From contig CBDUGV010000004.1 of NCBI GenBank assembly GCA_965366815.1, positions 1 to 58,523 of the forward strand: a stretch of DNA of 58,523 bases, read 5' to 3'. Below the pieces are notes generated by a model. It saw only the letters and a list, made by a program, of their open reading frames with translations. It made no database searches and was not told where the DNA came from. A program made the position numbers and the translations under genes. The stretch is from an uncultured Bdellovibrionales bacterium (GTDB lineage: Bacteria > Bdellovibrionota_C > UBA2361 > SZUA-149). The stretch's first letter is position 1; each line of letters opens with the position of its first letter. Below are positions 52,380-52,958 of this stretch, piece by piece.

Positions 52380-52664
52380 CTACGCAATCCGAAAATTGCG
52401 AACTATGGCGCTTATGGAATCAAACAGACTTCGAAGCACGTTGGAGATAAGTGACGTCTTCTGCTGACGAACAGAAAATAAATACTGCAATTCCTGCTGC
52501 TGAAGCGGCGTGAGATCGTCCTGCCCAAACTTCCTTTGAACTATATCCAGAACTTCTCTATTACTCGTCGAAAGATCGAGTAACTTCTCTCGAGTATTAG
52601 TGTCCACCCCATTCCTTCCCTCTCCCCTATAAACGCTACTACCTACATTTGCGAGATCATTCAT
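52380..52664 (-). CDS. SctF (needle subunit)-like protein
   Basis: The C-terminal 40 aa PLQQQELQ...ISNVLRSLFDSISAIVRNFR align without gaps to the recalled PrgI C-terminus. Confidence 0.65.
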   Translation of the reverse strand: MNDLANVGSSVYRGEGRNGVDTNTREKLLDLSTSNREVLDIVQRKFGQDDLTPLQQQELQYLFSVRQQKTSLISNVLRSLFDSISAIVRNFRIA

Positions 52665-52673
52665 TTGCTCACC

Positions 52674-52958
52674 CTAGGTCAATCGAATATTTCGAGCTGG
52701 TGCCATCTGTGTCTCATGCCGCGTTCGCTCCAAGTTGGTAAAAAGCGTCACTTGAAGCATTTCCTGTTGAAGCTCGATTTGCCGATTTATCAACTCTTGG
52801 GTGTCTCCAGGGATCGCGCTCGTGTCTAAGCTCCCGGACCGGGCCAGACTCGTGAGAAAATCGACTCCGCGACTCAGTGGCTCAGGCAAATACCGCGTCG
52901 CCACACGCGCCCCAGAAGTGGCAGCATGCACTGCACTGCGTATCACATTTGGCTCCAT
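52674..52958 (-). CDS. Second SctF/SctI-like helical-hairpin protein
   Basis: PGDTQELINRQ...FTNLERTRHETQMAPARNIR has the same register as PrgI and 52380..52664. TAGGAGGA RBS. Confidence 0.55.
   Translation of the reverse strand: MEPNVIRSAVHAATSGARVATRYLPEPLSRGVDFLTSLARSGSLDTSAIPGDTQELINRQIELQQEMLQVTLFTNLERTRHETQMAPARNIRLT

Follow-up and report, generated by a model that had tools for sequence, protein, structure and literature searches.

Two small genes between sctQ and sctV

The window analyzed here is a whole stretch of 58,523 nucleotides (nt) from an uncultured Bdellovibrionales bacterium (GenBank assembly GCA_965366815.1, contig CBDUGV010000004.1). On its minus strand, a FliN/SctQ-type gene and sctV, which encodes the export-gate protein of type III secretion systems (T3SSs), closely flank two small open reading frames (ORFs). 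These ORFs, referred to here as gene A (52380-52664) and gene B (52674-52958), each encode 94 amino acids (aa) from an ATG start, and both lie exactly where a first-pass annotation, made from the sequence alone, had placed two tandem needle-like subunits. AGGAGG precedes the ATG of B by 6 nt, a 9-nt spacer containing GGTGAG separates the stop codon of B from the ATG of A, and 5 nt separate the stop codon of A from the ATG of sctV. The minus-strand gene order is sigma factor, sctJ, a 239-aa gene, a SpoA gene, B, A, sctV, a tetratricopeptide repeat (TPR) gene, and a family 2 glycosyltransferase (GT2) gene. Both genes are real and conserved, and their synteny with SctJ, SctQ, and SctV is fixed. 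The account developed below, which we consider likely but far from secure, is that A and B are paralogous axial subunits of the needle superfamily in a divergent, dispersed T3SS-like machine.

Profile evidence for a needle-type C-terminal helix

The link between A and the needle subunit SctF was first proposed from a pairwise comparison, in which the C-terminus of PrgI was quoted as a 40-residue string. Residues 53-92 of A align to this string without gaps at 11/40 identities (P, Q, S, SN, D, AI, and NFR), exactly as claimed, and 29 of 20,000 composition-preserving shuffles of A reach at least 11 identities at any offset. By itself, this match is no more than suggestive. PrgI S62, N63, D70, I75, N78, F79, and R80 are identical to A S74, N75, D82, I87, N90, F91, and R92, respectively, K66 and Q77 of PrgI correspond to R78 and R89 of A, and the positions shared with PrgI are among the most conserved in the A family. 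In the needle structures of PrgI and MxiH, K66, D70, Q77, and R80 face the lumen. The last five residues of these proteins are required for polymerization.

When 1.84 billion representatives were searched exhaustively with the A profile, 72 proteins scored at E ≤ 0.001, nearly all of them 64-150 aa long and matching to their last residues. The A-family alignment built from this search (A4) holds 70 sequences, one for each of 70 clusters. Its members share the motif L-(D/N)-L-S-T-S-(D/N), which kinks the first helix, followed by an (S)P turn and a C-terminal helix of the form R-x-Q-x5-S-N-x2-R-x3-D-x4-I-(I/V)-R-N-(I/F)-R; the C-terminus of A in the window reads ...SNxxRxxxDxxxxIVRNFRIA. The Pfam model of the T3SS needle, PF09392 (T3SS_needle_F), matches 16 of the 70 members across model positions 6-71 of 71 with a best E-value of 5.6e-6, one of these matches being also precomputed, and any other Pfam family matches two members at most. 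TIGR02105 (III_needle) is the top NCBIfam family for these proteins (best E 0.0029). The SctI model NF038054 matches a single member (E 0.029), and FliE (PF02049) weakly matches two (best E 0.0049). Since the members matched by PF09392 share the gene context of A, the link to the needle does not arise through unrelated proteins.

Comparison of the A4 profile with all PDB sequences ranks two designed repeat proteins first. Next come a fragment of SsaG, the needle protein of Salmonella pathogenicity island 2 (7y6c_F; E 0.0025), PrgI (E 0.008-0.05), and MxiH (E 0.13-0.2), and the needle alignments reach the last residue of each chain. Shallow profiles returned only noise from the PDB and were discarded as needle evidence. 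At the profile level, the A family is shown by these comparisons to be homologous to SctF. The first-pass annotation had named comparison with needle and inner-rod profiles as one check, and matches are found to PF09392, TIGR02105, and the needle proteins of the PDB; its core claim of two needle-like subunits in the SctF register is supported by this profile evidence. It had also expected both genes to be annotated as hypothetical, and the named relatives are indeed labeled 'hypothetical protein'. One protein of 274 aa (P0099) carries the A-type C-terminal helix behind a 220-residue Gln/Glu-rich N-terminal extension and could represent an axial subunit that has been extended or fused.

Gene B had been described as keeping the register of A. 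The features listed for it are all present, namely P50-G-D-T, Q, T74-N75, E82, and R89-N-I-R92; the accompanying pairwise match to PrgI, at 8/40 in the register of A, is reached by 2,442 of 20,000 shuffles and is not significant alone. The B-family alignment (A3) comprises 65 clusters. It is marked by a conserved N-terminal motif, R-(Y/F)-x-P-E-P, and by the near-invariant ending S-N-x-E-(R/K)-x2-H-E-T-x-M-A-P-x-R-N-I-R, within a C-terminal helix whose consensus is ...QIExQxEMxxVTxxSNxERxxHETxMAPxRNIRx. Direct comparison of A with B by BLASTP is not significant (E 0.66), and hhalign with shallow alignments gives only 16%; neither was retained. With the deep alignments, hhalign joins the A family to the B family with a probability of 95% (E 3e-8) in an alignment that spans the final 45 columns up to the last residue and keeps the same register, which shows the predicted C-terminal helices of the two families to be homologous. 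In addition, when a joint A+B profile (A5) is compared with the PDB, each of the 11 best matches is a needle protein (E 9e-4 to 0.022), the spurious repeat proteins are gone, and the matches to PrgI and MxiH are stronger than those obtained with A4. Because of the hhalign link and the improved joint-profile matches, B is best described as a derived member of the needle superfamily that it shares with A. Taken together, the needle matches of the A4 and A5 profiles in the PDB are consistent.

The AlphaFold2 (AF2) model of A has a predicted local distance difference test (pLDDT) score of 76.6. It shows a disordered N-terminus, helices at residues 22-29 and 35-46, a turn at G47-P53 whose loop covers 47-52, and finally a long helix at the C-terminus (53-93). 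In the model of B, the C-terminal helix reaches pLDDT values of 79-96, and the N-terminal half 54-59. No transmembrane segment or signal peptide is found in the A family or the B family; across the 70 A-family members, of median length 98.5 aa, the maximum Kyte-Doolittle value in a 19-residue window is 1.44. The helix conservation moment is not significant for A (2,435/5,000 shuffles), with both faces conserved, and is significant for B (3/5,000 shuffles), whose C-terminal helix is conserved on all faces.

The conserved module and its proposed assembly

The genes that surround A and B on the minus strand are listed below in order of transcription.

54795..55520 (-): sigma factor, FliA/WhiG-like, first gene of the module; Sigma70_r2 and r4 domains
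53976..54779 (-): SctJ-type inner-membrane ring lipoprotein; PF01514 at 40.2 bits, above cut-off; TIGR02544 (III_secr_YscJ) at E 3e-18
53267..53986 (-): 239-aa protein at the position of the SctQ N-terminal part; no family match
53043..53258 (-): SpoA/FliN-SctQ C-terminal domain protein of 71 aa; PF01052 (FliMN_C) at E 1.6e-7, above cut-off
52959..53042 (-): 84-nt gap 5' of B, with the AGGAGG ribosome-binding site and TCCGATAA, read from the sequence
52674..52958 (-): gene B, needle-superfamily paralogue of 94 aa; ORF with a 65-cluster family
52380..52664 (-): gene A, divergent SctF-family (needle-type) subunit of 94 aa; ORF with a 70-cluster family
50383..52374 (-): SctV/FlhA-family export-gate protein; PF00771 (FHIPEP) at E 8e-153
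49947..50516 (-): TPR lipoprotein, conserved last gene of the core module; TPR families
48903..49877 (-): GT2 glycosyltransferase, conserved directly downstream in the A-containing module type; PF00535

The best NCBIfam family for the sigma factor is TIGR02479 (FliA_WhiG; E 1.2e-27), below cut-off. The 239-aa protein has no Pfam or NCBIfam match, and in related loci the gene at its position is either fused to a FliMN_C domain or directly followed by one. The 71-aa SpoA protein matches TIGR02551 (SpaO_YscQ) weakly. SctV scores 493 bits against TIGR01399 (hrcV) and 454 bits against the FlhA model, both below their own cut-offs, and its C-terminal tail in the window is unusually long (663 aa in total versus 617-640).

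The best NCBIfam matches of the TPR protein are PilW/Tgl-type TPR lipoproteins, all below cut-off. By eye, the window protein and nearly all of its listed relatives carry a hydrophobic, lipobox-like leader ending in Cys. The long form of this protein (189 aa), which includes the leader, shares 134 nt with the 3' end of sctV, and the gene callers applied to identical contigs chose a 143-aa form without it. Since nearly all listed relatives have the lipobox-like leader, the long form is probably correct. Because the module thus encodes a periplasmic TPR lipoprotein, part of the apparatus is predicted to lie outside the cytoplasm.

In the window and in 3 of the 7 other A-containing loci examined (L013, L021, and L027), GT2 immediately follows the TPR gene; the contig of another of these loci (L056) ends at the TPR gene, and none of the loci with B only has GT2 downstream. 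The N-termini of the A family are Ser/Thr-rich, and glycosylation of the subunit is conceivable. Next to the module, an FtsY-like GTPase and tandem MotB-like genes (55715-58523 and beyond; L001 and L060) were considered as parts of the system and set aside, as related loci hold no homologues; they are probably chance neighbors. A MotA/ExbB gene lies near them, beyond the window end.

The 84-nt gap ahead of B is the sole sizeable intergenic gap of the operon. It holds an octamer resembling the -10 element of sigma-28 promoters, TCCGATAA, on the minus strand at 53016..53009, 51 nt 5' of the ATG of B and with no good -35 element. A sigma-28-like promoter is not claimed here, since a CCGA[TA]A motif occurs upstream of B in just 4 of 48 distinct relatives.

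In a back-translated pattern scan, 44 species-level genomes contained B; almost all are metagenome-assembled genomes labeled Bdellovibrionota, Oligoflexia, or 'Deltaproteobacteria', and the core module was defined by clustering all ORFs of these loci. It consists of the FliA-like sigma factor, SctJ, a SctQ-like protein, B, SctV, and the TPR lipoprotein, in an order that is fixed across the 44 genomes. Among 49 loci, the sigma factor is present in 45, SctJ in 46, B in 49, SctV in 41, and the TPR lipoprotein in 41. A occurs in 8 loci only (7 distinct, as L001 duplicates the window), every time with B on one side and sctV on the other; in about 40 of 48 distinct loci, B is present and no A lies within 10 kb on either side. 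In a tree of SctV from 40 loci, the A-containing modules form one clade on a long branch with 100/100 support. Within this clade, median pairwise identity is 43% for B, 31% for A, 49% for SctV, and 34% for SctJ, and B thus evolves more slowly than A.

The SctV branch dividing two deep module types measures 2.18 substitutions per site, which suggests that the types diverged long ago or that their function changed. In the first type, SpoA is encoded by a gene of its own, alongside B, A, and GT2; the second has B only together with a 104-aa gene. In the B-only modules (L006, L008, L009, and about 27 others), this conserved gene of about 104 aa follows the TPR gene, some 2.8 kb 3' of B, and a response regulator is often next after it; its product is related to neither A nor B. 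The 103-114-aa gene found after TPR in distant modules was considered as a missing A and ruled out.

The near-constant company of B and the sigma factor bears on one alternative, in which one of the two proteins, most plausibly B, is an exported anti-sigma factor of the FlgM type that acts on the FliA-like sigma factor and is released on completion of the apparatus. Nearly every locus that encodes B also encodes the sigma factor, and the length of B (about 100 aa), its low-confidence N-terminal half, and missing signal peptide are FlgM-like traits. However, FlgM is absent among the families listed in the Pfam and NCBIfam scans of the A and B families, all 65 B members included, B keeps a needle-type C-terminal helix in exact register with A for which an anti-sigma factor would have no reason, and the joint A+B profile matches needles. 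This role is very unlikely.

The position of the two genes brings in a second alternative. In the Ysc family, yscX and yscY lie directly upstream of the counterpart of sctV, as A and B do here, and both proteins are predicted to be helical; they could therefore be cytoplasmic accessories of the gate, such as a stalk of the SctO/FliJ type, a SctV-binding pair of the SctX/SctY type, or needle chaperones. Against this, no FliJ, YscX/Y, or YscE/G model is among the families listed, and the homology is specifically to the needle subunit over its full length. A cytoplasmic accessory role for the pair is judged highly improbable.

A third alternative treats A and B as relics of an injectisome that was lost, genes in decay that no longer build anything. 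In its favor, the neighborhood lacks the rest of the T3SS core; it covers the window and 20 kb past its end, the latter read on an identical metagenome contig that holds no further T3SS genes there. Yet the ORFs are intact and tightly coupled with good ribosome-binding sites, 65-70 diverged clusters retain near-invariant C-terminal motifs, gene order is fixed in the 44 species-level genomes, and there is evidence of purifying selection. Decay is the least credible of the explanations considered and can hardly be entertained.

In the assembly proposed for the preferred reading, that of A and B as axial subunits, the two small hydrophilic proteins without a Sec signal would be made from the sigma-sctJ-sctQ-B-A-sctV-TPR operon and would pass as early export substrates through the gate that contains SctV. 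Occupying the place of SctI/FliE, B would provide the layer next to this gate, within the SctJ ring. A would then add onto B, using its conserved C-terminal helix to polymerize into a short tube of needle or rod type, whose channel would be lined by a conserved polar stripe of N75, R78, D82, and R92, as with the equivalent residues of PrgI and MxiH. Export, polymerization, the identity of the proximal subunit, and the end point of the structure are points that we infer. B would serve as the proximal rod or adaptor, because it is universal, slow-evolving, and conserved on all helix faces, and A as the distal needle-type polymer, because it is a canonical-looking relative of SctF. Since needle-family genes stand in the operon, a short axial tube is the probable product of this machine, in contrast to the needle-less version of Myxococcus. 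The presence of a lipoprotein and the lack of a secretin in the window or the next 20 kb point to a structure that is short and either periplasmic or embedded in the envelope, rather than to a long needle directed at a host.

The distribution of A allows the parts to be cast differently, with B as the main conduit or filament subunit and A as a clade-specific accessory, be it a co-polymer, a cap, or a distal extension; this corresponds to the two-component filament that the first-pass annotation offered beside a needle plus inner rod. In favor of this arrangement, B is the sole small subunit in most modules, the roughly 40 of 48 distinct loci without A, its C-terminal helix is conserved on all faces, and its addition to the profile improves the needle matches. 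On the other hand, B alone matches no needle model and the A family does. In known injectisome and flagellar structures, moreover, it is a six-copy SctI or FliE adaptor, not a polymer, that contacts the gate. This casting seems rather unlikely, though less so than the three alternatives above. The choice between needle and rod labels, or a two-component filament, goes in any case beyond the homology of the two families.

Several results weigh against the preferred reading of A and B as axial subunits. Window A alone has no relevant match in Pfam, NCBIfam (none at E ≤ 1), or the PDB, and window B alone has none in the same three sources. All PF09392 scores in the A family fall below the gathering cut-off (best 26.9 versus 29.4 bits), and the E-values of the needle matches in the PDB are marginal one by one. 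The turn of the A family has a single conserved (S)P in place of the canonical P-x-x-P. Foldseek searches with the AF2 models of A and B gave no significant match, a null result that is common for short helical proteins. The 65-member B family likewise has no relevant match in Pfam, NCBIfam, or the PDB, and SctI (PF17001 and NF038054) and FliE are absent among the families listed for it; as there is no SctI/FliE match, the 'inner rod' label for B draws on position and paralogy. The majority of modules lack A, which is therefore not essential to the core function. Finally, neither SctRSTU nor an ATPase, SctD, or secretin is found among the large ORFs of the window or in the next 20 kb.

Comparison with known type III systems

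Protein A resembles the SctF proteins PrgI, MxiH, SsaG, and YscF in being a hydrophilic protein of about 70-100 aa without a Sec signal, encoded inside a block of T3SS genes and predicted by AF2 to fold as a helix, a turn, and a long C-terminal helix. This helix carries SN, a basic residue three positions further on, an acidic residue four positions after that, and the ending I-(I/V)-x-N-(F/I)-R. It differs from SctF in scoring below the curated thresholds, in the single (S)P that stands for P-x-x-P, in the L-(D/N)-L-S-T-S-(D/N) motif, and in N-termini that are often long as well as Ser/Thr-rich. Because the curated thresholds are not reached, A, which would act as SctF does, is best classed as a relative within the SctF superfamily, not as a plain member of the family. 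The setting differs as well, since no secretin, translocon, or tip gene lies nearby, and the system belongs to an uncultured bacterium that is Bdellovibrionota-like and neither a pathogen nor a symbiont of eukaryotes.

With SctI (PrgJ, MxiI, and YscI) and FliE, protein B shares a length of about 100 aa, a poorly ordered N-terminal half, and a C-terminal helix homologous to that of the needle. Its presence in every module and its slower evolution relative to A fit an adaptor that contacts the gate. However, B matches no SctI or FliE model, has an ending (H-E-T-x-M-A-P-x-R-N-I-R) and an N-terminal motif (R-Y/F-x-P-E-P) of its own, and is encoded after sctQ, whereas the gene for SctI/FliE precedes sctJ. 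The resemblance to SctI/FliE would be one of role only. A broader parallel exists with the flagellar rod series FliE/FlgB/FlgC/FlgF/FlgG, in which successive axial layers of small paralogous subunits are built on one gate under a FliA-type scheme. Unlike in that series, the only matches are the two weak ones to FliE among the 70 A-family members, and there is no rod N-terminal motif and no hook or filament gene.

An ancestral SctF-based machine lacking a secretin has been inferred from the T3SSs of myxobacteria (Abby and Rocha, 2012; PMC3459982). It is conceivable, though doubtful on present grounds, that the A-containing module is a living example of this secretin-less ancestor of all injectisomes, proposed to have used an SctF-type subunit for a structure in the periplasm or at the cell surface, that B represents a new and universal class of needle-derived adaptor or conduit with an invariant polar ending, and that the whole forms a third deep type III lineage beside flagella and injectisomes, controlled by a FliA-like sigma factor of its own and perhaps serving bacterial predation. 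That uncultured Bdellovibrionota keep needle-family subunits in a reduced T3SS-like system lacking a secretin bears on how the injectisome arose from flagella, and in particular on whether a SctF-based structure preceded the recruitment of the secretin. It also bears on the role of such machines in interactions between bacteria and on the predatory T3SSs regarded as needle-less. Standard pipelines label A and B as 'hypothetical', and similarity searches like that behind the needle-less call in myxobacteria could miss genes so divergent; the A and B families supply concrete sequence profiles for them. No paper describing a non-flagellar T3SS (NF-T3SS) in Bdellovibrionota was found in the literature, and the T3SS-like system of this operon is apparently undescribed.

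The closest described system is the NF-T3SS of Myxococcales, which was reported to lack both SctF and the secretin (Abby and Rocha, 2012; PMC3459982). In Myxococcus xanthus, a needle-less T3SS* acts with the Kil Tad system in the lysis of prey (PMC12428579). Like these systems, the module described here is reduced, secretin-less, and T3SS-like, occurs in predator-related bacteria, and likely acts on targets other than eukaryotic hosts (PMC3459982; PMC12428579). It departs from them in encoding a TPR lipoprotein and a dedicated FliA-like sigma factor, and export-gate or ATPase genes are not found in cis. The contrast that the first-pass annotation drew with the needle-less Myxococcus system fits the SctF absence reported there (PMC3459982): the myxobacterial systems are without SctF, whereas this module encodes one or two subunits of the needle family.
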